Shown here: positions 7,284 to 22,158 of the stretch, piece by piece
Position numbering within the stretch: the stretch's first letter is position 1
How the letters are laid out: every line of letters starts with the position of its first letter
IMG/VR virus record: IMGVR_UViG_3300025928_000005
Location: 1 to 64,000 of that record
DNA length: 64,000 nt
Reading direction: 5' to 3' (one strand)
From: a virus
Notes under the pieces: model-generated
Databases searched by the model: none
Told to the model about the DNA's origin: nothing
What the model saw: only the letters and a program-made list of their open reading frames with translations
Position numbers and translations under genes: made by a program

Positions 7284-8240
7284 TTGCTGATCACCATCGA
7301 GGGCCCCGACTGCGGCGGCAAGTCGACCCTCACCAGGCAACTGCTCGAGGCGGCTGAGGCCCGTGGCTGGCTCGGGCAGCGGGTCCACAAGGGGCCGCCC
7401 GCCCCGGACGTCGACCCGTTCACGGAGTACGAGACCGCCCTCGACGTCGAGCCCCTTCGCAGCCTCATCGATGGCTACGACACCCTCGTCGTCATGGACC
7501 GCTGGCACGTCGGCGAGGCGATCTACGGCCCGCTGTGGCGCGGCCACAGCCGCCTCACCCGCGCCGGCCTCGCGCACGTGGAGGCCGCCCTCGACGCCGT
7601 CGGGGCGATCCGCGTCATGTGCCTGACGCCCTACCACGAGCTGCAGGCCCGGTTCCTCACCCGCGGTGACGACCTCACCAAGCTCGACGAGCTCCCGCAC
7701 ATCCACGGCGCGTACCAGGACCACGCGGAGCTCTTCGACTACGTCGTCCTCACCGGCTTCGAGCCGCGGCAGGTCGCGGTCAACGGCCTGCTCGACATCG
7801 CCCGGAACCGCCGCAACCGCGCGCGGCTGATCACCAAGCTCAGTGATCGCACCTACATCGGCCAGCTCTGGCCCACCTACCTCATCGTCGGCGACGAGCG
7901 CAACGCCCGACCCCGACCCGACCTCACGCGCCCGTTCACCCCGGTCAACGGGTCCGGCTGCAGCACGTGGCTCTGGGACGCGGTCGTCGCCACCGGCTAC
8001 CACACCGAGGTTGGGGTCGTCAACGCCAACGAGAGCGGCGTCGCCCTGACCTACCTGTGGCGCGAGCTCGACGAGCCCCGCGTCGTAGCCCTCGGCAACC
8101 GCGCCGCCTCCAGGCTCTACGCCGCCGGCATCGAGCACCGCATCATCTACCACCCGCAGTACGCGAAGAGATTCCAACACAAGGACTTCGACGGCTACGT
8201 CGCGTCCCTCAAGGAGGCGATGCATGGAGTACGTGTCTGA
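7284..8240 (+). CDS. dNMP (thymidylate-kinase family) kinase fused to C-terminal UDG-superfamily-like domain
   Basis: IEGPDCGGKST P-loop, MDRWHVGEAIYG; C-term LIVGDE...VVALGNRA...HPQY. Confidence 0.8.
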   Translation: MLITIEGPDCGGKSTLTRQLLEAAEARGWLGQRVHKGPPAPDVDPFTEYETALDVEPLRSLIDGYDTLVVMDRWHVGEAIYGPLWRGHSRLTRAGLAHVEAALDAVGAIRVMCLTPYHELQARFLTRGDDLTKLDELPHIHGAYQDHAELFDYVVLTGFEPRQVAVNGLLDIARNRRNRARLITKLSDRTYIGQLWPTYLIVGDERNARPRPDLTRPFTPVNGSGCSTWLWDAVVATGYHTEVGVVNANESGVALTYLWRELDEPRVVALGNRAASRLYAAGIEHRIIYHPQYAKRFQHKDFDGYVASLKEAMHGVRV

Positions 8241-9147
8241 CCTCGGCTCCGAGGTCTACGTCAACCTGCTGCACGATCTGCTTCAGGCCCCGCGGGTCGC
8301 CCCCCGCAGCGTCGCCACGCGAGAGCTTCGCGACGTCACCCTGCGGATCGAGAACCCGGGTGAGGTTCACGTCCTGCGCACCATGCGCAAGCCCAACCTC
8401 AGGATCGCGGCCACCGAGGCGATGCACCTCATCGGCGGCCTCAGCAGCCTGCAGCAGCTCGACCGCGCCAGCGGCGGTCGGTTCAGCCAGTTCGCAAACG
8501 GCGGTCGCCTGCTCGGCGCCTACGGTCCTCGCACCTTCGAGCAGCTGCCTGCCGTGGCTAGCCTGCTCAGGCGCGACCCCAACACCCGGCAGGCGGTCGT
8601 CAGTCTCTGGACCGGCCGTGAGCACGACGCCGCGTCCCGGGACGTCCCCTGCACCACCACGCTGCAGTTCTTCCTGCGCGATGACCTGCTGCACCTGCGG
8701 GTCACCATGCGATCCAACGACGCGTGGCTCGGCGTGCCCTACGACCTCATGATGTTCAGCTGCCTGCAGCGAACGATGGCGTGCGCGCTCGGTGTGGAAC
8801 CCGGCGAGTACACTCACAGCGTCGGCTCCATGCATCTCTACGAGCGCGACCTCGACGCGGCGGACCTCGTCGCGCGCGACGACCACGATCTCGCCATCGC
8901 CAATCCCCACGTCACCGTGGGAATCCCGGTGCCTCTCTTCGACATTGAGCGTCGCTCCGTCGATGACCTCGCTGCCAACGCCACCGCGGTCTGCTTCCAC
9001 GACTGCCCCGACTGGGACCTCCTGCCGGCGCACGAGTGGCTCTACGACGTTGTGCCAATGCTCGACGATGACGAGTCTCTCTGCCTGTCCTGCCGCTACG
9101 TCACCACCGGTGACGTCTGCCTCACCTGCCACCGGGAGACGCCGTGA
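8224..9147 (+). CDS. thymidylate synthase homologue, probably dCMP-specific (hydroxymethylase/methylase/hydroxylase type)
   Basis: YGPR, TRQAV, DVPCT catalytic Cys, MRSNDAWLGVPYD (Asp at the Asn177 specificity site), GSMHLYE. Confidence 0.88.
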   Translation: MEYVSDLGSEVYVNLLHDLLQAPRVAPRSVATRELRDVTLRIENPGEVHVLRTMRKPNLRIAATEAMHLIGGLSSLQQLDRASGGRFSQFANGGRLLGAYGPRTFEQLPAVASLLRRDPNTRQAVVSLWTGREHDAASRDVPCTTTLQFFLRDDLLHLRVTMRSNDAWLGVPYDLMMFSCLQRTMACALGVEPGEYTHSVGSMHLYERDLDAADLVARDDHDLAIANPHVTVGIPVPLFDIERRSVDDLAANATAVCFHDCPDWDLLPAHEWLYDVVPMLDDDESLCLSCRYVTTGDVCLTCHRETP

Positions 9148-9425
9148 CCGATGACCAGACCGAGACCCGCGAGGACAAGCTGCGTGCCTTCGCCGCCGAC
9201 CTCCTGCTCGACGACGCCAGCAAGCTCGACTTCCTGACCGTCGTGGAGACCGCGCACGACCGGAAGCTGTTCCCGGACGGCTTCACCGACGAGGACGCCG
9301 AGTACGTGCACGACCTCGCGCTCCGCGCCACCCTGCGCGTCAGCTGGCCCGACCACGAGTACGTGTACGGCACGTCGTTCGACGATGACGAGACCGACGG
9401 TGACGACGACACTGCCGGCGAGTGA
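9144..9425 (+). CDS. acidic hypothetical protein
   Basis: 93 aa, GTGA-coupled. Confidence 0.7.
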   Translation: MTDDQTETREDKLRAFAADLLLDDASKLDFLTVVETAHDRKLFPDGFTDEDAEYVHDLALRATLRVSWPDHEYVYGTSFDDDETDGDDDTAGE

Positions 9426-9897
9426 CGGCCGCCCCGGCTGGGACCCCACCTGGCTCGCGGTCGCGCAGGTCATCGCGTACCGCAGCCGCTGCGACCGCGC
9501 CCAGGTGGGTGCCGTGATCGTGACCCGAGATAACCGGGTCGCGGCCATCTCCTACAACGGCCCGCCGCGGGGGCAGCGGCTCGTCGGGACCTGCGTCAAC
9601 TGGTGCCCACGGGCCCGCGGCGAGAACCTCAGCCCGTCCTACGACGAGTGCGCCACCGTTCACGCCGAGGCCAACGCGCTGCTGCGCGCCGACTTCACGG
9701 ACATCCGTGGCGGCACCATCTACGTCTCCAGCGCGTGCTGCCGGGGCTGCGCCAAGCTGATCGCCAACTCGGGGCTCACGCGCGTCGTGCACGTCGTCGG
9801 CCCCAATGACCTTCACCGCGACCCCGACGCGGTGGAGACCTACCTGCGAACCTGTGGCCTCACGGTCACGCGAGCCAACCGAGTGGAGGAGCTGTGA
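9385..9897 (+). CDS. dCMP deaminase
   Basis: RPGWD, RSRCDRAQVGAVIV, YNGPP, HAEANAL, CCRGCAKLIANSG; start uncertain. Confidence 0.92.
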   Translation: MTRPTVTTTLPASDGRPGWDPTWLAVAQVIAYRSRCDRAQVGAVIVTRDNRVAAISYNGPPRGQRLVGTCVNWCPRARGENLSPSYDECATVHAEANALLRADFTDIRGGTIYVSSACCRGCAKLIANSGLTRVVHVVGPNDLHRDPDAVETYLRTCGLTVTRANRVEEL

Positions 9898-10118
9898 TTA
9901 AGCCATCGCCCAGCGAGCGAGCCGTGCCGATCGTGGGGCAGCTGCTTGATCAGTTCGAGGAGCGTCATCGGGGAACCTTGCCCGATCGCCTCGACTGCGG
10001 CTGTGAGTGGCGGGTGCTTGTTGCGAAGCTCCTGTTCGACGCGTGGGCTCACGGCTACGCTGAAGGCTTCGCCAACCAGGACGGGCTCACCGAGACCGGA
10101 ATCGAGAGGACCACGTGA
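9894..10118 (+). CDS. hypothetical protein
   Basis: 74 aa, GTGA overlaps at both ends. Confidence 0.6.
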   Translation: MIKPSPSERAVPIVGQLLDQFEERHRGTLPDRLDCGCEWRVLVAKLLFDAWAHGYAEGFANQDGLTETGIERTT

Positions 10119-11989
10119 GCGACCTCGAGGTCTATCAGCCACCCGCGGTAGTGCCGGCGGTCGTCACGGAGGCCGCGGTCGCGGTCCCCGAGCGCTCCCC
10201 CGCGCGGGTTGAGAGCTCACCGCTCGCCAACGTGCGGCTCAAGCTCGTGGAGACCCTCGACGACGCGCTCGAGTTCGCGACCTGGCTTGGTGAGCGCCGG
10301 CAGGTCCTCGCGTTCGACACCGAGACCGGCGGCCTCAACCACCACGTCGACAACCTTCGGCTCATCCAGGTGGGGGACCGTGACACCGGGTGGGCGATCC
10401 CGTGGCCGCTGTGGGGCGGCCTCGCGCGCGACAAGCTGAACGGCTACGAGGAGCCCAACGTCGCTCACCACCGCAAGTTCGACCACGGCTTCCTCAAGCA
10501 CCGTGGCGGCATCGACATCCCGTGGGCCAACGGCCACGACACGATGACCCTGCTCGCCGTCCGTGACCCCACGCTGCCCAAGGGCCTCAAGCCCGCGTCC
10601 GCCCGGCTCATCGACAAGCGAGCCACCGCCGGCGAGAAACTTCTCCATGACGGCATGAAGCAGAACGGCTGGACGTGGGCCACCGTTCCCTACAACTTCC
10701 CGCCGTACTGGGCGTACGGCGCGCTCGACCCGGTTCTCACCGCTCACCTGTTCGATGCCACGTACCCGGTCCCCGAGCGGTCCCAGCCGATCTACGAGCT
10801 CGAGCTCGCCACCTCTCGCATCTGCGGGGAGATGTCGCACCGCGGTATCATGATCGACCGGGGGTACGTCAACGACGCCATCAAGCGGCTCAAGGTCTAC
10901 ACCGGTGACACCCGCGCCTGGCTCAAGGAGAACTTCAACGTCACGAGCCTCCTGTCGGCCAAGCAGCTCGCGGCCGGCTTCGCCAAGGCCGGTCTCACCA
11001 TCACCAAGACCACGCCCAGCGGGCAACCCAAGCTCGACAAGGAGACCCTCGAGGCGATCGTCGCCTACGAGGGCGTCCCCGAGGCCGCCCGACAGCTCGC
11101 CAAGACGGTCATCGACGCCAGGCACGCGGAGAAGGTCATCGGCAGCTACCTCGAGAAGTTCCTCGAGCTCTGCGACGCCAATGACGTCGTGCACCCTCAG
11201 ATCAACACGATGCAGGCCCGAACCGGACGCATGTCCGTCACCGAGCCCGCCCTGCAGACCCTGCACCGCGACGACAAGATCGTGCGCGGCTCGTTCATCC
11301 CCCGCCCCGGCATGGCCCTCATCACGTGCGACTTCAGCCAGATCGAGATGCGCCTGGCGGCCGCGGTCAGCGCCGACGAGGGCCTCATCGCCGCCTTCCA
11401 CGAGGCCGACAACGGCGGTCGTGACTTCTACTCCGCGATCGCCAGTGAGCTCTTCCGCGAGGAGGTCGACAAGAAGGATCCCCGCCGGCAGGCCGTCAAG
11501 ACCATGTCCTACGCCAAGCTCTATGGGGCCAGTGTCGCCACCATGGCCCGCTCCATCGGCCTTCCCGTGGAGCAGGTCAAGCCCATCCACGACGCGTTCA
11601 ACGAGCGGTTTCCCGGTCTGGAGAAGATGGCCAAGGGCATCTACCGGGAGGCCGCCGCGGAGAAGCGCGCCCACGGCAAGCCCGCCACGTGGACGAGCAT
11701 GGGCCGCTACCTGCCCGCCGACAGCGGCCGCGACTTCGCGCTCCTCAACTACCGCCTCCAGGCGGAGGCCGCGGACGCCCTGAAGCGCTCCATCGTGGCC
11801 TGCTCCAACGGCGGCTTCGACGACGCCATGCTGTTGCCGGTGCACGACGAGATCATCTTCGAGGTGCCGCTCGCCGACGCCGAGGACGCCAAGCGCCAGG
11901 TCATCGACCTGATGACCGACCGCGACACGTACGCCGTGCCGCTCACGTGCGACGCCGCGATCCTCACCGAGCGGTGGAAGAAGACCTGA
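10115..11989 (+). CDS. polA: family A DNA polymerase (3'-5' exo + polymerase)
   Basis: FDTETGG exo I, TGRMS, DFSQIEMR motif A, RQAVKTMSYAKLYG motif B, VHDEI motif C. Confidence 0.95.
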   Translation: MSDLEVYQPPAVVPAVVTEAAVAVPERSPARVESSPLANVRLKLVETLDDALEFATWLGERRQVLAFDTETGGLNHHVDNLRLIQVGDRDTGWAIPWPLWGGLARDKLNGYEEPNVAHHRKFDHGFLKHRGGIDIPWANGHDTMTLLAVRDPTLPKGLKPASARLIDKRATAGEKLLHDGMKQNGWTWATVPYNFPPYWAYGALDPVLTAHLFDATYPVPERSQPIYELELATSRICGEMSHRGIMIDRGYVNDAIKRLKVYTGDTRAWLKENFNVTSLLSAKQLAAGFAKAGLTITKTTPSGQPKLDKETLEAIVAYEGVPEAARQLAKTVIDARHAEKVIGSYLEKFLELCDANDVVHPQINTMQARTGRMSVTEPALQTLHRDDKIVRGSFIPRPGMALITCDFSQIEMRLAAAVSADEGLIAAFHEADNGGRDFYSAIASELFREEVDKKDPRRQAVKTMSYAKLYGASVATMARSIGLPVEQVKPIHDAFNERFPGLEKMAKGIYREAAAEKRAHGKPATWTSMGRYLPADSGRDFALLNYRLQAEAADALKRSIVACSNGGFDDAMLLPVHDEIIFEVPLADAEDAKRQVIDLMTDRDTYAVPLTCDAAILTERWKKT

Positions 11990-11998
11990 CCAACTGGG

Positions 11999-12027
11999 TT
12001 TACAAATGATCACCCACCTGATAGGGT
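11999..12027 (+). promoter_or_regulatory. promoter TTTACA-N17-TAGGGT
   Basis: GATCACCC/GGGTGATC inverted repeat overlaps the -10; leader CAGGAAC. Confidence 0.75.
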
Positions 12028-12059
12028 GATCGCAGGAACAGATCGAACGGAGGAAGGTT

Positions 12060-12572
12060 TTGGCACGCGCCACCTTGAACACCGACACGCTGCTGAACCT
12101 CTGCTACGACGGCACCGACACTGAGCGGGTCATCTGGGTCGACCCCGGCGAGTCCACCGGCTGGGCGCTCTGGGGTGCCGACGGCTCGTTCGCCAGCGGC
12201 CAGGACGAGGCCTACGTCGTCGAGAACGGCATCTATGCCGCCCTGATGGGGTCCGCCTGGCGCTACCAGGTCGGGTGGGAGCAGTACCTCATCACCGGCA
12301 GCCGCGTCAGGCACGACGGCAGCGCCCTGCGGGTGATCGGCTTCCTCGAGTGGGTCACGCGCTACACCGAGACGAGGCGGCTCAAGCCGATGCCCAGCTC
12401 GGCCCGCAACCTCGGGCAGGACGGGGACAAGCTCAGGGTCCTCGGCTGGCACGCACCGGGTCGGAGGGACGCCAACGCGGCCGCGGCTCACCTGCTCGCG
12501 CACCTGCTGCGCGACAACCTGCTGCCGAGCCCGCTGCTGCGGAAGCTCGCGGACTGGGGCCTCAGTGGCTAG
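12060..12572 (+). CDS. RuvC-like / RNase H-fold nuclease (resolvase candidate)
   Basis: VIWVDPGESTGWA, central E, C-terminal DANAAAAH. Confidence 0.7.
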   Translation: MARATLNTDTLLNLCYDGTDTERVIWVDPGESTGWALWGADGSFASGQDEAYVVENGIYAALMGSAWRYQVGWEQYLITGSRVRHDGSALRVIGFLEWVTRYTETRRLKPMPSSARNLGQDGDKLRVLGWHAPGRRDANAAAAHLLAHLLRDNLLPSPLLRKLADWGLSG

Positions 12573-14385
12573 GGCCCACGTCGACCGCGACCTCAACCGC
12601 ATCGTCGTCAAGGCGAGCCTCTCCGACAAGGACCGGCTCGCGGTCATCCCGGGAAGCGCCTGGCACAAGGCCACCGACACGTGGCGACTGCCGCTCACGT
12701 GGGCGGCCTGCCTGCAGCTCCGCGGCGTCTTCAGGGGTGATCTCGAGCTCGACGAGTCCCTGGTCAGCTGGGCCTGGGAGTTCCGCCAGCACTTCCTGCA
12801 GCCCGTGGAGCACGTTCGGGAGGCGATGAGCCTCGAACCCAACGACCACCCCCTCGCCACCATCGACCTCGCGATCGACCGCGTGGAGGACGGTCGCGAG
12901 CTGGTCCTCAAGCCCTTCCAGCGAGCCGGCGTGGCGTACCTCACGCTCGCGGGCCGCGCCGGCCTCTACGACGAGATGGGAACCGGCAAGACCGTGCAGC
13001 TGATCCGCACCCTGCAAGTTCTCGAGGAGCTCGACCGGCAGCCGTTCCCGGCGCTCGTGGTCTGCCCCAACAGCCTCAAGAACACGGTGTGGCTGCGGGA
13101 GCTCGCGGACTGGGCCCCCGAGCTCAGCGTCATGATCGTGGAGGGGTCCATGGCCAAGCGCCGCGAGCAGCTCGCCACCCCCGCCGACGTCTACGTCATC
13201 AACTACGACCTGCTCAAGCTGCACTCGCGGCTCGCCCCCTACGGGTCGGTGCGGCTCACCGAGGCGCAGAAGACCCCCAAGGAGCTCAACGCCCTCGGCC
13301 ACCGCACCGTCATCTTCGACGAGGCGCACCGACTCTGCCACGTCGGCGGCAAGGTCATCACCAACGAGGACGGCACGCGCACCACGGTTCCCTCCTCGCA
13401 GCAGACCCTCGCCGCGTTCGCCGTGGCCCACCAGGCAGATCACCGGTTCGTGCTCACCGGCACCCCCGTGAACGACCACGTCGGTGACCTGTGGGGCCTC
13501 CTGCACGCGGTGCTGCCCGACTGGTTTCCGACCCGGACCAAGTACCTCGACCGCTACGCGGAGAAGTCCTACGGCCTGTGGGGCGGCGCCGAGATCATCG
13601 GCCTCAACCCGGCGCACGAGCCCGAGTTTCGCGCCGTGACGACGCCGCTGTACCGGCGCGTGTTGAAGCGAGCCGCCCTGCCACAGCTGCCGCCCAAGCT
13701 GCCCACCGTCTACCGCGAGACGCCCATGGGCACCAAGCAGACCCGGGCGTACCGACAGATGGAGCTCACCATGCTCGCGGACCTCAACGAGATCCTCGTC
13801 GCGAAGTCCACGATCGAGCAGTTCACGCGGCTGCTGCAGTTCGCGGCCGCCTCCGCGGAGGTCGACGAGGACGGCAAGGTCAGGCTCACCGGCGCATCAC
13901 CCAAGGTCGACGACCTCGTCGACCTCCTCGGTGAGCTCGACCCGAAGCCCCTCGTCGTGGCCGCCGAGTCCCGGCAGCTCATCGAGCTCGCGGCGGAGCG
14001 CCTCAAGAAAGAGAAGATCAGCCACGGCCTCGTGACCGGCGCGTTGTCCCCGTTCGAGCGCGGCGAGAACGTGCGGCGCTTCCAAGAGGGCCGGCTGCGG
14101 GTGATCCTCCTCACGCTCGGTGCCGGGGCAGAGGGCCTGACCCTCACCCGCGCGGACACGATGCTGTTCATGCAGCGGTCCTTCAGCCCGCTCAAGAACA
14201 CGCAGGGTGAGGACCGGATCTACCGCATCGGCTCCGAGATCCACGAGCGCATCCAGATCGTGGAGCAGATCGCGCCCAACACGGTGGAGGAGCGTCGCCG
14301 CGACGTCCTCACCCGGAAGGGCGTCCGCATCGAGGACGTCCTGCAAGACGCCGCGGCCCTGCGCCGCATGCTGGGAGGCAGCTGA
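12565..14385 (+). CDS. SNF2-family helicase
   Basis: DEMGTGKT, DEAH, LTGTP, GAEGLTLT, QGEDRIYRIG. Confidence 0.92.
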   Translation: MARAHVDRDLNRIVVKASLSDKDRLAVIPGSAWHKATDTWRLPLTWAACLQLRGVFRGDLELDESLVSWAWEFRQHFLQPVEHVREAMSLEPNDHPLATIDLAIDRVEDGRELVLKPFQRAGVAYLTLAGRAGLYDEMGTGKTVQLIRTLQVLEELDRQPFPALVVCPNSLKNTVWLRELADWAPELSVMIVEGSMAKRREQLATPADVYVINYDLLKLHSRLAPYGSVRLTEAQKTPKELNALGHRTVIFDEAHRLCHVGGKVITNEDGTRTTVPSSQQTLAAFAVAHQADHRFVLTGTPVNDHVGDLWGLLHAVLPDWFPTRTKYLDRYAEKSYGLWGGAEIIGLNPAHEPEFRAVTTPLYRRVLKRAALPQLPPKLPTVYRETPMGTKQTRAYRQMELTMLADLNEILVAKSTIEQFTRLLQFAAASAEVDEDGKVRLTGASPKVDDLVDLLGELDPKPLVVAAESRQLIELAAERLKKEKISHGLVTGALSPFERGENVRRFQEGRLRVILLTLGAGAEGLTLTRADTMLFMQRSFSPLKNTQGEDRIYRIGSEIHERIQIVEQIAPNTVEERRRDVLTRKGVRIEDVLQDAAALRRMLGGS

Positions 14386-14555
14386 TGCCGGTGCACGCGA
14401 CCACGGTTCGAGTGCGAACGCGCTGGCGCTGGTGGACCATCGGTGACGTGACCGCCTGGCGGGTCACGCAGAACGGTGACCTCGTCATCACGCGGCGGGA
14501 CCTGAGCACGGTCCTGTTCGCGGTCCGTCGCTGGCGACACGCTTGGGAGGCCTAG
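14385..14555 (+). CDS. small hypothetical protein (56 aa)
   Basis: MPVHATTVRVRTRWRWW...HAWEA; TGATG overlap, GGGAGG RBS; not in ORF track. Confidence 0.55.
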   Translation: MPVHATTVRVRTRWRWWTIGDVTAWRVTQNGDLVITRRDLSTVLFAVRRWRHAWEA

Positions 14556-14557
14556 CC

Positions 14558-15499
14558 GTGAGGGAGATCAGCAACAGTGAGATGCAGTCGTTTCAGCGGT
14601 GCCGCCGGCACTGGGCGCTCAGCTACCACTGGCAGTGGCAGCCCCGCGCCGTGGACACGTCACCCGTGGGCGTGGCCATCCTCGGCACGCGGATCCACCT
14701 CGCCCTCGAGGCCTGGTACGGCCACGGCATCGACCCGATCGAGGCCCTGTCCTGGCTCTACGAGGTGGCTGCCCTCGAGCGGCCCGACTTCGCCGTCGAC
14801 CTCAGCAAGGAGCTCGATCTCGCCAAGGCGATGGTGGAGGGCTACGTCCAGTGGCTCGACGAGGAGGGCGTCGACGTCAGCCTCGAGACCGTGGACGTGG
14901 AGCGCGAGCTCAAGCACCAGGTCGGCACCTATCTCGGCCCCGTCGTGCTCCGGGCCAAGCTCGACCGGCTCGTGCGCCGCCGCACCGACGGCGCGCTCCT
15001 GCTCGTCGACTACAAGACCGTCGGCTCACTGAGCAAGGCCGACCGGCTCGTGCTCGACCAGCAGATGCGGTTCTACGCCATGCTGCTCGCGCTGCGGTTC
15101 CCGGAGCACCGTGTCGACGGCGCGCTGTACACCATGCTCAAGCGATCCAAGCGCACCGTCCGCGCCACGCCCCCGTTCTACCAGCAGGTGGAGATCAGCT
15201 ACAACCGGCACGACCTCAACTCCACGTACCAGCGCGTCACCGCCGTCGCCGGCGCGATCCTCGAGGCGCACCTGCGGCTTAACGACGGGGACGACCACCA
15301 CGCCATCGTCTACCCCACGGCCACCGACTACTGTGACTGGGGCTGCCCGTTCAGTCGGGTCTGCCCGCTCATGGACGACGGCAGCCGGTGGGAGGCCGCG
15401 CTTCAGGCGAACTTCGACCGAGGGGATCCCTATTCATACTACGAGCGCAGTACTATTCAGGAACTGGTAGCGGACCTGGGAGAGGCAAAGGAGAGCTAG
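14558..15499 (+). CDS. Cas4/AddB-like PD-(D/E)XK exonuclease with Fe-S cysteines
   Basis: SNSE..FQRCRR, GTRIH, KLD...VDYKT, Q..FY, CDWGCPFSRVC. Confidence 0.88.
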   Translation: MREISNSEMQSFQRCRRHWALSYHWQWQPRAVDTSPVGVAILGTRIHLALEAWYGHGIDPIEALSWLYEVAALERPDFAVDLSKELDLAKAMVEGYVQWLDEEGVDVSLETVDVERELKHQVGTYLGPVVLRAKLDRLVRRRTDGALLLVDYKTVGSLSKADRLVLDQQMRFYAMLLALRFPEHRVDGALYTMLKRSKRTVRATPPFYQQVEISYNRHDLNSTYQRVTAVAGAILEAHLRLNDGDDHHAIVYPTATDYCDWGCPFSRVCPLMDDGSRWEAALQANFDRGDPYSYYERSTIQELVADLGEAKES

Positions 15500-15504
15500 A
15501 CGAG

Positions 15505-15948
15505 ATGGGAGGCAGGTTCTGTCCACCTGGGTGTCAGTGCGGACGTCACACGAAGAAGCAACCTAAGCATCCGGTAGGTTGCCCGTGTAAGTTGCACTCT
15601 AAGGTGACACCCAAGTGCCCAGAAGGATGCAGATGCCTCAAACACCATGGTCGAACATTTCGTCGAGCTGATGCCTACTTTAACAACCACGCAGTAGTTG
15701 GAAAAGTTCGAGGGTCGTCGGCTGATCATAACTGCGTTGACTGCGGTAGTAAGGCTCGACACTGGTCTCATGTTCATGACACTGATCCGACGGATCCGCA
15801 AAACTACGAGCCTCGCTGTGACAAGTGCCACCAAGTCTACGACGGCATCCACACCATTGAAAAATGGTGTGACATCTGCCAGAAAAGCTGGTCGCTAACC
15901 AAGTGGAGCCGTCACATCAGAAAGTACCACCAGGGAGGAAAGTGGTGA
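15505..15948 (+). CDS. HNH-type endonuclease with Cys-rich repeats; low-GC insertion
   Basis: CVDC...HWSH...YEPRCDKCH; visibly lower GC than flanks. Confidence 0.75.
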   Translation: MGGRFCPPGCQCGRHTKKQPKHPVGCPCKLHSKVTPKCPEGCRCLKHHGRTFRRADAYFNNHAVVGKVRGSSADHNCVDCGSKARHWSHVHDTDPTDPQNYEPRCDKCHQVYDGIHTIEKWCDICQKSWSLTKWSRHIRKYHQGGKW

Positions 15949-16724
15949 CCAGCAACAGCAACCACTATGGTTTCAATCTAATAGTCTTCGGCGCGTCCAA
16001 GAAGGGAAAGTCCTGGCTCGGTGACACCACGCCCGCGCCCCGCGTCGTGCTCGACGCGGAGGCCGGCAGCCGGTGGACCCCCAGCAACAAGGTGATCTGG
16101 GACCCCAAGGCCCAGAAGCCGCCGGAGCCGGACGGCACCTGGGACACCGCCCTCGTGCCGGTCCGCGAGTACAAGGACGTGCTCAAGGCCTACGAGTGGC
16201 TCAACAGCGGCAAGCACCCGTTCCGCAGCGTCGTCATCGACTCCATCTCGGAGGTGCAGCAGCGCGCCATCGACGACATGGTCGGCTCCAGCGCCATGAA
16301 GGTGCAGGACTGGGGCCAGCTGCTGCGGGTCGTCAGCGACCTGGTCCGCAAGTTCCGGGACCTCGTCACCAACCCGCTCAAGCCGCTCGACGCCGTCCTG
16401 CTCATCGCGATGGCCAAGCAGCGGAACGACGGGGCGTGGGGCCCGCACATTCAGGGCTCCCTCGCGACCACGCTGCCCTACTACGTCGACGCCTGCTGCT
16501 ACCTCGACGTGGTCGTCGGCGACGACGGCACGCAGACCCGCCGGCTGTTCTGCGGCAACTTCCCGGGCTTCGAGACCGGGCACCGCCTGCCGGAGCACCT
16601 GCTTAGCCAGTACGTCGACAACCCCAACATCAGCGAGATCCTCGCCCGCATCCGCGGCGGGGAGACGCTGCCCACCACGTCCTCGTCGGCCACCGTGGCC
16701 GTCGACCTGAGCGAGAAGAGGTAA
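15945..16724 (+). CDS. Sak4-like AAA ATPase (recombinase)
   Basis: GASKKGKS, LDAEAG, VVIDSISE, DWG; lies between exonuclease and SSB. Confidence 0.85.
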   Translation: MTSNSNHYGFNLIVFGASKKGKSWLGDTTPAPRVVLDAEAGSRWTPSNKVIWDPKAQKPPEPDGTWDTALVPVREYKDVLKAYEWLNSGKHPFRSVVIDSISEVQQRAIDDMVGSSAMKVQDWGQLLRVVSDLVRKFRDLVTNPLKPLDAVLLIAMAKQRNDGAWGPHIQGSLATTLPYYVDACCYLDVVVGDDGTQTRRLFCGNFPGFETGHRLPEHLLSQYVDNPNISEILARIRGGETLPTTSSSATVAVDLSEKR

Positions 16725-16732
16725 CCCGCACC

Positions 16733-17308
16733 ATGGCGGCAATCAACTGGAGTGACCTGCAGAAGGCGGCGGGCGACGCCGCGTTCACCCCCGTCCCCAA
16801 CGACGTCTACGACGTGTTCGTGGACACCGCGGAGGCGACGCAGTCCTCCACCGGCAAGGACATGATCAAGGTCCAGTTCAAGATCCAGAACGGCCCGCAC
16901 GAGGGGCGGAACGTCTTCAACCAGTTCGTCATCTCGCCGGACAGCGCGAACGCCCTCGCGTTCTTCTTCCGGCACATGGCGGCCCTGGGCCTCGACGAGG
17001 CGTTCTTCGCGGCCAACCCGCCGCTGCAGACCGTCGCCGCGACCCTGGTCGGCCGCGCGTGCCGCATCAAGGTCGGCACCCGGGAGTACCAGGGGCAGGA
17101 CCGCAACCAGGTCGACGCGGTGCTGCCGCCGACCGCGGGCACCGCGGTCACCGCCCCGCCGGCTCCCAGCACCATGCCGACCGTGCCGCCGTCGCCGGCC
17201 GCCGCACCGAGCGGTGTGGGCGCGACGCCGATGCCGACCGCCCCGCCGGTGACCGCACCTGCCGCGCCGGCTCCGGTCGCCCCGCCGTCGCCCGAGCTGC
17301 CGTTCTGA
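16733..17308 (+). CDS. single-stranded DNA-binding protein (DUF669-like)
   Basis: FTPVPNDVY...STGKDMIKVQFKI...GPHEGR; Pro/Ala tail ending ELPF. Confidence 0.85.
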   Translation: MAAINWSDLQKAAGDAAFTPVPNDVYDVFVDTAEATQSSTGKDMIKVQFKIQNGPHEGRNVFNQFVISPDSANALAFFFRHMAALGLDEAFFAANPPLQTVAATLVGRACRIKVGTREYQGQDRNQVDAVLPPTAGTAVTAPPAPSTMPTVPPSPAAAPSGVGATPMPTAPPVTAPAAPAPVAPPSPELPF

Positions 17309-17310
17309 CG

Positions 17311-18345
17311 ATGCGGATCCTGGTCACCGGCTGCAGCCAGCAGCAGTGCGGCAGCGGCACCAAGCAGGGCTACCAGCCGGTCATCGAGATGCACGTGCAG
17401 GCGCTGCGTGACCTCGGCCACGAGGTCACGCAGCGGCCGGTGGTGATCGACGACGACGAGGCCCTGACCCACGACGTGCTGATCGTGGGTCAGGTGCCGT
17501 GCCTCAGCGTCGCCGGCCACCACGTGTACCCGGCCCTCAACCTCCTCGAGCGAGCCGAGGCGAAGGGCAAGCGGGTCATCCTCAACGTCGACGACTGGCA
17601 GTTCCCCCGCATCCACGACAACCTCATGACCGTGGCTCGGGGACCGCACCGCATCACGCGGGAGAGCGTGTTCAAGGGACGGCCCGGCTACGACTGGATC
17701 ACCAGCCCCGAGGGGCAGCGCACGCTCGACCGCTACCTCGAGCGGATGCTGACCCGCCCCTGGCCGCCCGTGATGTATCCCGCGTTCGCGTGGGGCGACC
17801 ACAAGCTCCTCGCGGGCCACCTGCCCGCGGAGCGGTCCTACTTCCTCGACCCCACGTCCTACACGCGGAGCTACCACACCAACGAGCCGCCGCTCACCGA
17901 TGGGGAGCGGCACCGACGGTGGGTGCTCGGTGTCCTGAGCGACCAGTCCGCGTGGCTCAAGACGCTCGGGCCGATGACGTGGGACCTGCACCTCGCGGGC
18001 CGCCCGAAGGAGGGCGCGCCGGCGATGCAGGAGGCCGACCTGGTGCGGCTGTACGCCGACAGCTGGGGCGTGCTGTCTCCCCTCTACAAGAAGGTCGCGG
18101 GCTCGGGCTGGTGGCGCAACCGGTTCGTGTACGCCGCGATCACCCGGTCGGTGCTGCTCGCCGACCCCGAGGAGGTGCGCCGGCTCGGCGCGCCGTACCT
18201 CGTCGACGTGCGGGACGTGGAGAGCCTCACCGCCGGCGAGTTGCGGGACCTCGCTGAGGCGCAGGCCGCGTGCCTGCGTGACAGGGTCTGGAACCGCGAC
18301 CGCTACCTCACGGAACTGGAAGGAATGATCAGGAATGAGCGTTGA
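17311..18345 (+). CDS. GT-B-like putative DNA glycosyltransferase
   Basis: MRILVTG...ALRDLGHEV...VDDWQ...GSGWWRNRF; GT-B N-terminal signature in a DNA-metabolism context. Confidence 0.65.
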   Translation: MRILVTGCSQQQCGSGTKQGYQPVIEMHVQALRDLGHEVTQRPVVIDDDEALTHDVLIVGQVPCLSVAGHHVYPALNLLERAEAKGKRVILNVDDWQFPRIHDNLMTVARGPHRITRESVFKGRPGYDWITSPEGQRTLDRYLERMLTRPWPPVMYPAFAWGDHKLLAGHLPAERSYFLDPTSYTRSYHTNEPPLTDGERHRRWVLGVLSDQSAWLKTLGPMTWDLHLAGRPKEGAPAMQEADLVRLYADSWGVLSPLYKKVAGSGWWRNRFVYAAITRSVLLADPEEVRRLGAPYLVDVRDVESLTAGELRDLAEAQAACLRDRVWNRDRYLTELEGMIRNER

Positions 18346-18718
18346 CGGTGACCTGGGCGTGCTGCTCAAGGCACAGGCCCAGCTGCAGGAGCTGATGGGG
18401 CACGACTTCGAGGCGATGACCACCGTGGAGCGGATGCGGTACCTCCGCGACCAGATGCTCGCGCTGCAGGTCGAGGCGGTGGAGGTGCTCAACACCGCAC
18501 CGTGGAAGCCGTGGGCGACCTACCCGACCGACGCCGAGATCGACGACGCCGAGTACGTCGGCGAGCTCGCGGACGTGTTCATCTTCTTCCTCAACCTGCT
18601 GCTCGTAGGTGACGTGAGCTCCAACCGCCTGCTCGAGGCCGTGGCGCTGAAGATCGAGAAGAACGTGCGCCGCGCCAACTCGCGCTACGACGGGCACTGG
18701 ACGACCACCGAGAGCTGA
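18335..18718 (+). CDS. all-alpha dUTPase/dCTPase (MazG-like NTP pyrophosphatase)
   Basis: EAVEVLN..PWKPW...GELADVFIF...KIEKNVRR. Confidence 0.88.
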   Translation: MSVDGDLGVLLKAQAQLQELMGHDFEAMTTVERMRYLRDQMLALQVEAVEVLNTAPWKPWATYPTDAEIDDAEYVGELADVFIFFLNLLLVGDVSSNRLLEAVALKIEKNVRRANSRYDGHWTTTES

Positions 18719-18727
18719 GCTGATCCC

Positions 18728-18762
18728 GAGAGCGGGGAGCCGGGTCAGGGCTCCCCGCTCTC
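18728..18762 (+). terminator. perfect 14-bp stem-loop
   Basis: GAGAGCGGGGAGCC-N7-GGCTCCCCGCTCTC just after stop. Confidence 0.7.
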
Positions 18763-18788
18763 TCCCTGTCCGCGGATTGATGACAACC

Positions 18789-18797
18789 TGATAGGAT
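18789..18797 (+). promoter_or_regulatory. extended -10 TGATAGGAT for leaderless HNH transcript
   Basis: 6 nt from the -10 to GTG 18804; no SD. Confidence 0.55.
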
Positions 18798-18803
18798 CAT
18801 TAC

Positions 18804-19247
18804 GTGGCGAACGGCTTGAGCGGTCACTGTGTGAAATGCGGTACTTGGCGTAGATCGCTTCACCGTGATCACATCATTCCAAAGTTCAAGGGCGGGTCAA
18901 ATGACCCAAGCAACATCCAACTGTTGTGTGCGAACTGTCACGAGGACAAGACGGTCGAGGACCTCAAGGGTCACAAGCTGAGGACCGACCAAGAGAGACG
19001 ACGAATTGAGTCTCAGATCGGCAAGAAGTGCAGTGAGACTCGACGACTCAACATCGCGATAGCCCACTACAACAAGATCAGAGAAGACGCTGAATATGCG
19101 AAACATCTCAGCACGATGCCAAATCGTAACGGTCGATACGACTGGATCTGTGTTGAGTGCGGCTTGAAGTCACTCCCTGGCTCGGTGGGAAGACACCAGT
19201 CAGCGACCGGACACGTTGGACGTGAGAGGGTTCTCAGAAATGTATAA
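18804..19247 (+). CDS. HNH endonuclease; low-GC insertion
   Basis: CVKC...DHIIPKFKGGSNDPSNIQLLCANCH; C-terminal CVEC..H...H. Confidence 0.88.
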   Translation: MANGLSGHCVKCGTWRRSLHRDHIIPKFKGGSNDPSNIQLLCANCHEDKTVEDLKGHKLRTDQERRRIESQIGKKCSETRRLNIAIAHYNKIREDAEYAKHLSTMPNRNGRYDWICVECGLKSLPGSVGRHQSATGHVGRERVLRNV

Positions 19248-20487
19248 GTTCATCGATTGCATGGGATTCGCGGGAGGAATGGCGGTCGGGGCCACGCAGG
19301 CCGGCTTCCGCCTCGTCAACAAGGTCGAGAAGAGAGGCGGCTTCGGCCTCCCCCTGATGGACGCCAACCGCGCCTTCCTCGGTGAGGACTGGGGCTACCA
19401 GGTCGGCGACCCCGACACCGACTGGGAGCCGTTCCAGGCGGACGTCGTCGTCGGCACCCCGCCGTGCGCCGCGTTCAGCGGCATGACCTTCGGCACCAGC
19501 AAGCACGGCATCGACTCGTCCATCAACGAGTGCATGTGGGACCTCACCCGCTACGCCGCCAAGGTGAGGCCCGCCGTCCTGGTCATGGAGTCGGTCAGTC
19601 AGGCCTACACCAAGGGTGTCAGTCTGATGACCCGGCTCGCCGAAGAGCTCAACCGCCTCACCGGCCTGTGGTACACCACGACCCACGTGCTGCAGAACAA
19701 CCTCAGCGTCGGTGGCTGCACCAACCGCAAGCGCTACTTCCTGGTGCTCAGCCAGGTCCCGTTCGGCGTGGAGCGCCCCACCGTGGACCGTGTCAACACG
19801 CTCGGTGACGCCCTGTTCGACCTCACTAACCAGGACCTCACCTGGGCGCCGCGGCCCTACCGCGACCCCGCCACCGCGTGGAGCGAGCCACTGCGTCGCG
19901 AGGACGGCTGCGTCGACGGCCACGCCTTCCGCGAGAACACGTTCACCCGGCGGCTCGCCGACATCCACGGCGGCGCGGGCTGGACCCCCGGGGAGCGCGA
20001 GGCCGACGTGCTCAAGCGCCACTACGAGCTGCACGGCTACCTTCCCGAGTCCTACCAGTACCCGCAGCCCGGCGGCAACGGCATCACCCGCGACAAGCAC
20101 CTCCTCGAGCGCGGGTTCGACCCCGGCGGCTTCAACCAGACCAAGTGCTGGTCCTGGACCGACCCGGGCCGCGTGCTCAGCGGCGCCGGCGTCTACATGG
20201 TGTGGCACCCCAACGGCCGCGTCATCACCAACCGCGAGGCCGCCCGCATCATGGGCTTCCCGGACGCCTACCTCATCGAGCCCGTCAAGGACGACCCGCA
20301 GCTCTCGTCCTACTGGGGCAAGGGCACCAGCGTCGCCCCCGCCCGGTGGGTCATGAACTGGGTGCGGGAGAGCCTCAACGGCAACCCCGGTCCCGTCACC
20401 GGCGACGTGATCGAGACCGGCGCGCGCCTCATCGACGTCTCCCGGGAGTGGAAGACCGCGACCAGGCTCGAGGAGACCGCGGCGTGA
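19240..20487 (+). CDS. divergent DNA cytosine-C5 methyltransferase-fold protein
   Basis: GFAGG (motif I-like), GTPPCAAFS (IV), MESV (VI), RKRYF (VIII), REAARIMGFPD (IX), WGKG (X). Confidence 0.85.
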   Translation: MYKFIDCMGFAGGMAVGATQAGFRLVNKVEKRGGFGLPLMDANRAFLGEDWGYQVGDPDTDWEPFQADVVVGTPPCAAFSGMTFGTSKHGIDSSINECMWDLTRYAAKVRPAVLVMESVSQAYTKGVSLMTRLAEELNRLTGLWYTTTHVLQNNLSVGGCTNRKRYFLVLSQVPFGVERPTVDRVNTLGDALFDLTNQDLTWAPRPYRDPATAWSEPLRREDGCVDGHAFRENTFTRRLADIHGGAGWTPGEREADVLKRHYELHGYLPESYQYPQPGGNGITRDKHLLERGFDPGGFNQTKCWSWTDPGRVLSGAGVYMVWHPNGRVITNREAARIMGFPDAYLIEPVKDDPQLSSYWGKGTSVAPARWVMNWVRESLNGNPGPVTGDVIETGARLIDVSREWKTATRLEETAA

Positions 20488-21158
20488 TCCCACACGACTT
20501 TCGCTTCCGGGACTGCGACCGCTTCGTCGTCGACCAGGTCTTCAACAAGCGAGAGTACGCGCTCGCCAGCCCGCGGGAGGGTGAGCGCGTCCTCGACCTC
20601 GGCGCGCACGTCGGGTCCTTCACGCGCTGGGCGCTCGACCAGGGAGCCGGCCACGTCACGGCGGTGGAGGCGGCACCCGAGACCGTGGCTCTGCTCCGCG
20701 GCAACGTCGCCCTCGACCCGCGGGTCACCGTCATCGCCGCCGCCGTGGTCGGCGCGCCGCTGGCCACGGCCACGCTGGCGCTGCCGCCGCGGGGCAACCC
20801 GATGGGTGCCTACGTGGTGGGCACCAAGCGGCCCGCCGGCAAGAGCTACCGCGGCTACCAGCTGAGCGAGGTAGCCACGGTCTCCCTGCCGTACCTCCTC
20901 GAGATCTACCAGCCCACTCTCGTCAAGTTCGACATCGAGGCCAGCGAGTACGACGTCCTCACCCCGCACGTCGACCTCCTCAGGCAGCAGGGCGTGCGGT
21001 GCCTCATCGGTGAGTACCACGTCAACACGCAGGCCCTTCTCGACCGCGCCACGCGGCTCGTTAGCCTCCTCGACGCCGCCGGCTACACCCGCTCCCGGTC
21101 CCTGCCCGGCAAGCCCACGGGGTGGGGCCGCACGATCTGCCACGACCTCGCCCCGTAG
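20484..21158 (+). CDS. FkbM-family SAM-dependent methyltransferase
   Basis: VLDLGAHVGSF, AVEA, VKFDIEASEY; GTGA-coupled to the Dcm-like gene. Confidence 0.88.
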   Translation: MIPHDFRFRDCDRFVVDQVFNKREYALASPREGERVLDLGAHVGSFTRWALDQGAGHVTAVEAAPETVALLRGNVALDPRVTVIAAAVVGAPLATATLALPPRGNPMGAYVVGTKRPAGKSYRGYQLSEVATVSLPYLLEIYQPTLVKFDIEASEYDVLTPHVDLLRQQGVRCLIGEYHVNTQALLDRATRLVSLLDAAGYTRSRSLPGKPTGWGRTICHDLAP

Positions 21159-21231: not shown

Positions 21232-22158
21232 GTGGAAATCCTGGACATCCCCGTCGAGGGCCGCCAGCTCGCGTGGGCGGGCATCACCACCGGCAGCGCC
21301 GGTGACGACCTCGTCAGCTCGGAGCAGCTGCTGCACCTCGCCGGCCTGGACTGGGAGGTCGCCAAGCGGCCCCTGCTGCGCACCAACCTCCAGGGCGAGG
21401 TCGTGCAGTCTCAACGGTCCTTCGAGATCTACCGCACCGACACCGGTGAGGAGCTCGGCACCGTCAAGAGCAAGTACGAGGTCTGGCAGAACCGGGACGC
21501 GTTCGCGTTCGGCGACGCCCTGGTCGCGGACGGCAAGGCCCGGTGGGTCGACGCCGGCTTGCAGGGAAACGGCTGGCGGGTCTTCATGACCATGCAGCTC
21601 AACGAGCCGTTCACGGTGCACGACGACCAGTTCAACCTGTACCTCTACCTGCGGACCAGCCACGATGGCAGCTCCTCGGTGAGCGGCTACGTGACCCCGA
21701 TCAAGGTGTGGTGCACCAACCAGCTGCCCCTGGTGTCCCGAACCGCGCTCGACAAGTTCAGCTTCCAGCACACCAGCAAGCTGAGCGAGCGCATCGAGGA
21801 GGCCAAGAAGTCCTTCGAGCTGACCGTCAACTTCGAGCGGGAGTTCAAGGCCTCCATGGAGCAGCTGCTTAAGACCGAGGTCACCGACGACAAGGCGCGC
21901 CTCCTGATCAAGGAGGTCATCCCTCAGACGCGGCCGCGGCGCGAGGACATGGTGGAGGCGATCATGCTCAACTACCAGACCTCAGAGACCACGCAGCCCT
22001 ACCGCAACACCGCGTACGGTCTGCTCAACGGCCTGACCGAGTACATGGACCACAAGAAGGTCCAGCGGAGCGGCAACTCGCGCTTCGAGAGCATCATGCT
22101 CGGCGAGGGCGCGAAGTACCGCACCAACCTGGCCCAGCGCCTGCTGGCGCTGAGCTGA
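21232..22158 (+). CDS. DUF932-family phage protein
   Basis: AGLDWEV, YEVWQN.DAF.F, TSHDGSSS, TPIKVWCTNQL, TAYGLLNGLTEYMDH. Confidence 0.85.
   Translation: MEILDIPVEGRQLAWAGITTGSAGDDLVSSEQLLHLAGLDWEVAKRPLLRTNLQGEVVQSQRSFEIYRTDTGEELGTVKSKYEVWQNRDAFAFGDALVADGKARWVDAGLQGNGWRVFMTMQLNEPFTVHDDQFNLYLYLRTSHDGSSSVSGYVTPIKVWCTNQLPLVSRTALDKFSFQHTSKLSERIEEAKKSFELTVNFEREFKASMEQLLKTEVTDDKARLLIKEVIPQTRPRREDMVEAIMLNYQTSETTQPYRNTAYGLLNGLTEYMDHKKVQRSGNSRFESIMLGEGAKYRTNLAQRLLALS

Follow-up and report, generated by a model that had tools for sequence, protein, structure and literature searches.

Introduction

Phages that replace cytosine by 5-hydroxymethylcytosine (5hmC) and glycosylate it have been described chiefly among the T-even phages and their relatives, which infect Gram-negative hosts. 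In phage T4 the work is divided among gp42, the kinase gp1, the gp56 dCTPase/dUTPase, the dCMP deaminase cd and the alpha- and beta-glucosyltransferases (AGT and BGT). Here we analyzed a stretch of 64,000 nucleotides (the window), bases 1-64000 of the 111,341-bp IMG/VR virus record IMGVR_UViG_3300025928_000005, from a soil actinobacterial phage. The window encodes proteins with the same enzyme roles, namely a thymidylate-synthase (TS) homologue, a deoxynucleoside monophosphate (dNMP) kinase, an all-alpha pyrophosphatase, a dCMP deaminase and a glycosyltransferase of the GT-B fold, and with them a C5-cytosine-methyltransferase-fold enzyme (the C5-methylase-like enzyme) and an FkbM-family methyltransferase (Table 1). 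On balance, we consider it probable that these genes form a T4-type pre-replicative cytosine-replacement pathway that yields glycosylated 5hmC, with a second tailoring step taking place on the DNA.

The likeness to T4 extends to the TS homologue, which retains Asp169 and carries Asp in place of both N177 and L143, to the all-alpha pyrophosphatase and the dCMP deaminase, and to a GT-B enzyme resembling BGT and AGT. Unlike T4, the phage is a siphovirus-like actinophage of about 68% G+C whose pathway genes lie within a PolA/SNF2/Sak4 replication module. Its kinase is thymidylate-kinase-like and fused to a domain of the uracil-DNA glycosylase (UDG) fold, it has no thymidylate synthase of its own, its glycosyltransferase lacks sequence similarity to BGT or AGT, and it has a constant C5-methylase-fold partner, an enzyme that T4 does not possess.

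The glycosylated 5-hydroxycytosine pathways of RB69, DLP3 and RL38J1 (Lee et al. 2026; PMC13326640) share with this locus the N177D and L143D/E changes in TS and GT-B DNA glycosyltransferases, and the cytosine hypermodification clusters of RB69 and DLP3 also share a thymidylate-kinase-fold kinase and a MazG-type dCTPase. The nucleotide-sugar enzymes encoded by these three phages find a parallel in a uridine diphosphate (UDP)-galactopyranose mutase gene beside homologues of the window glycosyltransferase. However, the D169N change is absent here and in all homologues examined. A further comparison is with the natural carboxymethyltransferase CmoX (Yang et al. 2025; PMC12783734) and the engineered M.MpeI N374K, which have in common with the C5-methylase-like enzyme the fold, the retained Pro-Cys and a basic residue in place of the motif-X Asn (here Lys, as in the engineered enzyme). 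In contrast to CmoX, the enzyme here has neither SPPC nor the Arg, carries further fixed changes (Gln to Ser/Ala/Thr, ENV to ESV) and is encoded in a genome without CmoA or an amide ligase, and its gene is strictly associated with a gene of the 5-hydroxymethyl-dCMP (5hm-dCMP) synthase type instead of CmoA.

Metavirome neighborhoods combining ThyS, GT-B and dCMP deaminase genes were catalogued by Pyle et al. (bioRxiv 10.1101/2023.12.21.572611) and read as pre-replicative sugar hypermodification; in the accessible part of that preprint the actinophage module, the kinase-UDG fusion and the variant C5-methylase/FkbM pair are not singled out. A search of 8 million papers and preprints turned up neither this pathway in actinophages nor the kinase-UDG fusion nor the pairing of the variant C5-methylase with FkbM, and literature searches on related cultured phages and on actinophage 5hmC gave no experimental data on the DNA of these phages. 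An earlier note on this DNA, made from the sequence alone, had held that the gene combination was not a described pathway. This stands for the actinophage module and its methylase-like partner, but not for the generic association of ThyS, GT-B and deaminase, which was already catalogued in metaviromes. The T4-like core is a known kind of pathway, with chemistry as in T4 or in RB69 and its relatives, and the methylase-like partner is the unexplained part.

Thymidylate-synthase homologue and precursor enzymes

The TS homologue was found to match PF00303 at 82.5 bits (cut-off 24.3) and to score well under the NCBIfam ThyA equivalog cut-offs, and its closest Protein Data Bank (PDB) match is the CMP 5-hydroxymethylase MilA (5b6d, 5e-25). 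The motif SRDVPC places an Asp, aligned with an Asp of MilA, at the position of E. coli ThyA L143 and retains Cys146, and in MRSNDAWLGVPYD Asp169 is retained and an Asp stands at the N177 position. The earlier note had recognized a dCMP-type Asp here, which was borne out by the alignment of GVPYD with GVPFN of thymidylate synthase and with the MilA Asp. The four residues Asp143, Cys146, Asp169 and Asp177 were present in the window protein and in 120 of its 120 closest metagenomic homologues. The same set was carried by 22 further TS homologues from module-bearing contigs, the exception being the glycosyltransferase-linked locus L029, with Asn at 143; Asp at the N177 position was found in all TS homologues of module-bearing loci.

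Prior work links N177D to the use of dCMP and L143D/E to non-methyl products, as in T4 gp42 and MilA, and identifies D169N as the mark of flavin-dependent 5-hydroxy-dCMP synthases (PMC13326640). From the combination of Asp143, Cys146, Asp169 and Asp177, the predicted product of the TS homologue is 5hm-dCMP, and neither dTMP nor 5-hydroxy-dCMP. The T4-like route to a C5-modified cytosine that the earlier note had put forward gained support from the N177D and L143D residues, while the 5-hydroxycytosine that it had offered as an option was set aside: a 5-hydroxy-dCMP synthase of the RB69 gp48 type was rejected, because neither the window protein nor any of the 120 homologues has lost Asp169 (in MRSND). 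The complete genome gave no Tet_JBP match, by which a post-replicative TET route was also rejected. Neither a second ThyA nor ThyX was found in the complete genome, leaving the window homologue as the sole gene of the TS family.

Additional features of the TS homologues were recorded. The window protein has a C-terminal extension of about 90 amino acids (8869-9147) that ends in a Cys cluster (CLSC...CLTCH), resembles a zinc ribbon and has no Pfam match. The closest homologues (52-77% identity) aligned over 95-100% with the extension included, the more distant ones over the TS core only, and lengths ranged from about 260 to 430 amino acids. The TS gene of locus L008 (IMGVR_UViG_3300003323_001359, 1492-2388) encodes the same Asp/Cys/Asp/Asp set but its product is only 39% identical to that of the window, amid replication genes that are 85-90% identical, which suggests that the gene was swapped for a like-for-like version.

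The dCMP deaminase carries HAE and a CxxC pair, and its gene lies immediately downstream of the TS gene in nearly all relatives. The pyrophosphatase matched PF08761 at 34.9 bits (cut-off 22.9; 2.4e-8), its gene is kept adjoining the glycosyltransferase or methylase gene in relatives, and it is a candidate dCTPase/dUTPase. The phage PolA is presumed to be the incorporating polymerase.

The kinase proved to be more than the dNMP kinase that the earlier note had described, since the identity of its kinase domain was confirmed and a second domain was found behind it. The AlphaFold2 model (predicted local distance difference test, pLDDT, 85) has two domains, and the match to phrog_761 'thymidylate kinase' (4e-11) covers only the N-terminal half of the product. 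Residues 1-183 form a dNMP kinase domain of the thymidylate-kinase/YorR type with the P-loop GPDCGGKST, for which Foldseek returned thymidylate kinases and YorR and VIA-align gave Z 16.2 to YorR (2axp) and Z 13-14.6 to thymidylate kinases. Residues of about 174-316 form a UDG-fold domain matching uracil-DNA glycosylases of families 4 and 5 and UdgX, with VIA-align Z 11.4 to the UDGs 1l9g and 2d3y and Z 11.2 to UdgX 6ail. This domain carries UDG-like motifs (VGDER, PF..NGSG, VVNA and HPQY, with conserved G-D/E, PF, N and HPQ) and had no Pfam sequence match at E<=10. Among the atlas neighbors, PF03167 occurs in 19-36% of members (score 0.88), which serves as a lead only. The fusion is kept in 10 related loci, and the kinase of a smaller phage (L085) lacks the UDG domain. 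It was also observed that the UDG-fold domain (residues 187-314) resembles the N-terminal domain of the phiLo family-A DNA polymerase 9qhs (Z 10.2), a structure solved 'with modified template', and such UDG-like domains may be a recurring element of the replication proteins in phages whose DNA is modified.

These precursor enzymes also bear on whether thymine rather than cytosine is the replaced base. The TS homologue would then still make 5hm-dCMP, but the deaminase would convert it to 5hm-dUMP, the kinase would phosphorylate this product, and 5-hydroxymethyluracil would be incorporated and glycosylated, with cytosine remaining canonical as the substrate of the C5-methylase-like enzyme. The kinase-TS-deaminase order, which almost all relatives keep, small phages of another architecture among them, is consistent with such a route, as are the likeness of the kinase domain to thymidylate kinases and that of the pyrophosphatase to dUTPases; the C5-methylase-fold enzyme would obtain an ordinary substrate, and the T4 AGT structures matched by the glycosyltransferase model were solved with 5-hydroxymethyluracil DNA. 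However, the direct known route to this base uses a dUMP hydroxymethylase with Asn177, whereas the homologues here all have Asp, and dCMP deaminase is also a general companion of ThyS-type cytosine pathways (bioRxiv 10.1101/2023.12.21.572611). Furthermore, T modification would shield fewer restriction sites in a genome of about 68% G+C, and acceptance of 5hm-dCMP by the deaminase is without support. We regard thymine replacement as improbable and retain cytosine as the favored target.

Glycosyltransferase and the variable sugar slot

The 344-amino-acid protein encoded within the replication module gave no match in Pfam (E<=10), in NCBIfam or among PDB sequences (by single sequence and by profile), and its structure was therefore modelled. 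The AlphaFold2 model, built from 32 homologues, has a pLDDT of 94.7, a predicted template modelling score of 0.92 and a GT-B fold. Foldseek matched the model to GT-B enzymes, with T4 BGT at the top (template modelling score 0.59). The top VIA-align match was again T4 BGT (1qkj; Z 19.7, root-mean-square deviation 3.7 Å, 300 residues aligned), followed by T4 AGT at Z 17.3 and then by an unrelated GT-B family at 16.5. The earlier note had called this protein a GT-B-like transferase and had placed glycosylation on the DNA after C5 modification; the first claim is upheld by the model of pLDDT 94.7 and the fold searches, and the second is supported computationally, BGT and AGT being the closest solved structures. 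We are confident that the protein is a GT-B glycosyltransferase, and its structural neighbors, its gene's place in the replication module and the co-occurrence with the TS homologue bearing both Asp residues make it a candidate DNA 5hmC glycosyltransferase.

The glycosyltransferase gene lies inside the replication module and not among the virion or lysis genes. Homologues were found in Actinomycetia phage DSL-LC01, eight Gordonia phages, spring-water viral contigs and Aeromonas Straboviridae. A UDP-galactopyranose mutase adjoins the homologue in DSL-LC01 and in Aeromonas phage Aes508, a pairing that echoes the nucleotide-sugar genes of known DNA-glycosylating phages (PMC13326640). In relatives without this GT-B enzyme, the slot between the single-strand-binding gene and MazG holds an RGP/STELLO-like gene or an NTP_transf_3 nucleotidyltransferase gene, and two annotated glycosyltransferases occupy it in Micrococcus phage Kurnik. 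Because the slot holds different glycosylation genes in different relatives, the sugar probably varies from phage to phage.

Outside the window, at 82814-84019 of the genome (plus strand; L002:18814-20019), a 401-amino-acid short-chain dehydrogenase/reductase protein was found to match the NCBIfam UDP-sulfoquinovose synthase very strongly (E 1.5e-129, 432 bits, with a curated cut-off of 575). As a core component of the module this gene was considered and rejected, because outside this genome it occurred in the nearest relative alone (69% identity) while three further relatives with complete or near-complete genomes lacked it. Production of a sulfosugar donor by a phage that also encodes a DNA glycosyltransferase would be notable.

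C5-methylase-like enzyme and FkbM methyltransferase

In M.HhaI, Gln82 and Asn304 line the site of the transferable methyl group, and their replacement enlarges the pocket. In vitro, 5hmC can also be a substrate of C5-methylases, by way of the same covalent intermediate. The C5-methylase-like enzyme of the window matched PF00145 at 62 bits, aligned with M.HhaI and 3g7u, and scored below the TIGR00675 cut-off (40 against 100.65). Its active site reads TPPCAAFS (without the Gln), MESV (without the Asn), NRKRYF and WGKG (with Lys at the M.HhaI Asn304 position). Three departures from the canonical motifs, PC[S/A/T] for PCQ, ESV for ENV and GKG for the motif X GN, were each present in 121 of 121 family sequences, and these non-canonical motifs are also fixed across loci. 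The catalytic Cys (PPC, 121/121), the motif VI Glu, the motif VIII RxR and the motif II Glu are retained. From this fixed non-canonical pocket, the enzyme probably handles a different donor or a C5-substituted cytosine. As a separate observation, about 15 of the 120 closest homologues (P0195, P0217, P0220-P0222, P0242, P0249, P0266 and others) carry C-terminal extensions of 100-200 amino acids, without a Pfam match and separate from the FkbM fusions.

The FkbM assignment is supported by TIGR01444 (57.3 bits against 37.7) and PF05050 (36.2 bits against 22.7). The start of the gene, previously placed at 19878, was corrected to a GTG at 20484 that overlaps the stop codon of the C5-methylase-like gene. 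The FkbM gene immediately follows the C5-methylase-like gene in this genome and in the nearest relative, occurs in only 4 of 40 long loci, and is fused to the C5-methylase-like domain in locus L010 and in 14 of the 120 closest homologues. The earlier note had paired FkbM with the glycosyltransferase as a sugar O-methylase. That pairing was rejected: FkbM is missing from most relatives and elsewhere stands next to or is fused with the methylase-like gene, and on this sequence evidence we assign it as an accessory of the methylase-like enzyme rather than of the glycosyltransferase.

One explanation for such a pair is that the C5-methylase-like enzyme acts as a CmoX-type transferase, adding a carboxymethyl or other non-methyl group to unreplaced cytosines, and that FkbM methyl-esterifies the product; replacement by 5hmC would then be partial and the two modifications would coexist. 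The Lys found in 121/121 sequences for the motif-X Asn (M.HhaI Asn304) speaks for this explanation, since the Arg of CmoX at the equivalent position contacts the carboxylate of carboxy-S-adenosylmethionine (Cx-SAM) (PMC12783734) and engineered M.MpeI N374K accepts Cx-SAM. The change of the PCQ Gln to small residues is compatible with it, and the recurrent FkbM-type fusion suggests a two-step reaction on one substrate. Against this, the Cx-SAM synthase CmoA was absent from the genome at E<=1 (of the control genomes, only E. coli scored above the family cut-off), the window enzyme has TPPC and Lys where CmoX enzymes have SPPC and Arg350, and most family members lack the FkbM partner. We judge a carboxymethyl-type transferase to be improbable, and slightly more so than thymine replacement.

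A different and tentative suggestion, to which we give some weight while considering it unlikely, is that the C5-methylase-fold enzyme is a DNA tailoring enzyme dependent on the 5hm-dCMP pathway and not a methylase of plain cytosine, with FkbM capping its product, so that the DNA would bear an as yet undescribed two-layer cytosine hypermodification with a variable sugar. Such an enzyme would either swap the substituent of 5hmC or of its glycoside by covalent Cys-C6 catalysis or use a donor other than S-adenosylmethionine to attach a group that is larger or charged. Because of the UDP-sulfoquinovose-synthase-like enzyme encoded in this genome, the sugar might here be sulfoquinovose.

Co-occurrence across related phages

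The whole region gave no megablast match to 50,697 phage records, and no GenBank phage is close at the DNA level; relatives were therefore sought by protein-level searches. The search anchored on the glycosyltransferase recovered 25 IMG/VR loci, in which, given sufficient flanks, the kinase, TS, deaminase, PolA, MazG and C5-methylase-like genes were all present. Phage DSL-LC01 is syntenic with the window, and the genes of locus L028 form an unbroken run that is arranged differently (methylase, glycosyltransferase, kinase, TS, deaminase). The search anchored on the C5-methylase-like gene recovered 281 IMG/VR loci, many of them without this GT-B enzyme. Exactly one TS homologue was found in 23 of the 24 whole contigs that carry the methylase-like gene (16/16 among contigs at least 90% complete), in every case with the Asp/Cys/Asp/Asp set; the kinase stood alongside in 23/23 and the deaminase in 21/23. 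A small phage of different architecture, without the glycosyltransferase, has the order Tmk-TS-deaminase-MazG-HTH-RusA-methylase. The module is found in uncultured actinophages and in nine cultured phages (with Gordonia and Micrococcus hosts). The cultured carriers include Gordonia phages GMA2, Forza, Boopy, Sixama and GodonK and Micrococcus phage Kurnik.

Gene co-occurrence in relatives was far above chance expectation. The co-occurrence check proposed with the earlier note thus came out in its favor, with the genes found together at more than 20 related loci and also where genomes are arranged differently. The same note had treated the 'Dcm-like protein' as an ordinary accessory, which was not upheld, as the C5-methylase-like protein has non-canonical catalytic motifs and is a core partner, the most constant companion of the TS gene.

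These distributions also allow a simpler account to be weighed, in which the genes are nucleotide-metabolism helpers, an anti-restriction methylase of the Dcm type and a glycosyltransferase acting on virion proteins or the host envelope. Deaminases of dCMP, MazG and DNA methylases are common in actinophages, depositors have labelled the relatives as thymidylate synthase, (thymidylate) kinase and methyltransferase, and co-occurrence may reflect vertical inheritance of one replication module. However, the Asp that replaces Asn177 is incompatible with a thymidylate synthase specific for dUMP, the methylase motifs are fixed and non-canonical, the glycosyltransferase sits in the replication module and has DNA glucosyltransferases as its best structural relatives, and the genes stay together in rearranged and unrelated architectures. 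Because of Asp177, the fixed non-canonical methylase motifs and the structural neighbors of the glycosyltransferase, we consider this account unlikely, and the least probable of the explanations weighed here.

Gene map

The 111,341-bp record has a CheckV completeness of 100%. Its replication arm lies on the plus strand at about 5.9 to 24 kb, and the virion genes lie on the minus strand. Gene calls were taken from plus-strand open reading frames (ORFs) supported by G+C content at third codon positions (GC3) and from profile searches (Pfam, NCBIfam and PHROGs), by which all of the pathway genes previously listed were confirmed in place, the FkbM start excepted.

Table 1. Features of the predicted modification module, with positions in the window.
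Feature	Position	Strand	Length (amino acids)	Evidence
Two-domain kinase/UDG-fold protein	7284-8240	+	318	phrog_761; AlphaFold2 model; fold searches
TS homologue, predicted 5-hydroxymethyl-dCMP synthase	8224-9147	+	307	PF00303 3.7e-23
dCMP deaminase	9385-9897	+	170	PF00383 8e-17; phrog_174 8e-41
PolA with 3'-5' exonuclease domain	10115-11989	+		PF00476 3e-57; PF01612 1e-4
GT-B glycosyltransferase	17311-18345	+	344	AlphaFold2 model; fold searches; no Pfam match
All-alpha NTP pyrophosphohydrolase (MazG / dimeric-dUTPase type)	18335-18718	+	127	PF08761; phrog_173
HNH endonuclease	18804-19247	+	147	PF01844 1.6e-11
C5-cytosine-methyltransferase-fold enzyme	19216-20487	+	423	PF00145 7.5e-17
FkbM-family SAM (S-adenosylmethionine) methyltransferase	20484-21158	+	224	PF05050 9e-9; TIGR01444 57 bits

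The pathway genes are interspersed with those for a RuvC-like protein, an SNF2 helicase, a PD-(D/E)XK nuclease, a Sak4/AAA_24 protein and a DUF669 single-strand-binding protein. The HNH endonuclease gene between the MazG-like and methylase genes is found in this genome only and is missing in all related loci, and it is probably a mobile homing-type insertion outside the pathway. Between the PD-(D/E)XK nuclease and Sak4 genes lies a Cys/His-rich ORF (15388-15948; about 150-186 amino acids, with several CxxC and HxxxH pairs) that matches solely PHROGs without an assigned function and has a counterpart in one relative (L026). About half of the related loci, like the window, encode a DUF932 protein (21232-22158; 2e-43; phrog_1221) downstream of the C5-methylase-like gene or of FkbM. 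In the closest relatives its gene follows immediately, and it may share the same conserved block.

Discussion

In the pathway that we favor, the MazG/dUTPase-type pyrophosphatase would lower dCTP (and dUTP) and supply dCMP, and the TS homologue would transfer a hydroxymethyl group from methylene-tetrahydrofolate onto C5 of dCMP to give 5hm-dCMP. The thymidylate-kinase-like domain would raise this to the diphosphate and a host kinase to 5hm-dCTP, which the phage PolA would incorporate. The dCMP deaminase would convert part of the dCMP to dUMP for the host thymidylate synthase, since the phage lacks a thymidylate synthase of its own. After replication, the BGT-like GT-B enzyme would use a nucleotide sugar to glycosylate the 5-hydroxymethyl group, and the C5-methylase-fold enzyme, with its altered cofactor and C5 pocket and sometimes with FkbM, would perform a second tailoring step on cytosines of the DNA. 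The substrates, the products and the extent of cytosine replacement in this scheme are what we infer from the observed identities, folds, active-site residues and co-occurrence of the genes.

Several observations weigh against this pathway. Residue signatures indicate a substrate class and not an activity, and the nearest solved relative of the TS homologue uses CMP rather than dCMP. The pyrophosphatase resembles dimeric dUTPases best (weak PDB matches) and is a candidate dCTPase only, so that the exclusion of cytosine may be incomplete. The constant adjacency of the TS and deaminase genes is equally compatible with deamination of 5hm-dCMP. The glycosyltransferase has no sequence-level match to T4 BGT or AGT, and in the structural comparison T4 BGT leads the other GT-B folds by about 3 Z units. 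A large share of the co-occurrence falls within one phage lineage with a common replication module; this shared ancestry accounts for part of the association, and the rearranged genomes in which the genes stay together argue for a functional link too. Finally, if all C5 positions were occupied, the C5-methylase-fold enzyme would be left without an obvious substrate, which is in tension with full replacement. Partial replacement, action of the enzyme on 5hmC, or replacement of thymine through conversion of 5hm-dCMP to 5hm-dUMP are possible ways to resolve this tension.

The C5-methylase-fold partner, with Lys at the Asn304 position, without equivalents of Gln82 and Asn120 and with its FkbM fusions, is a candidate for new DNA-modifying chemistry and for labelling enzymes, and new DNA glycosyltransferases could come from the variable sugar slot. 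The finding is directly testable, since nine phages in culture carry the module. The logic of the T-even pathway would recur here as a widespread module of high-G+C actinobacterial phages, represented by hundreds of IMG/VR loci and by cultured Gordonia and Micrococcus phages. If true, this would explain the restriction and CRISPR resistance of these phages, and it would bear on how they are sequenced and engineered.

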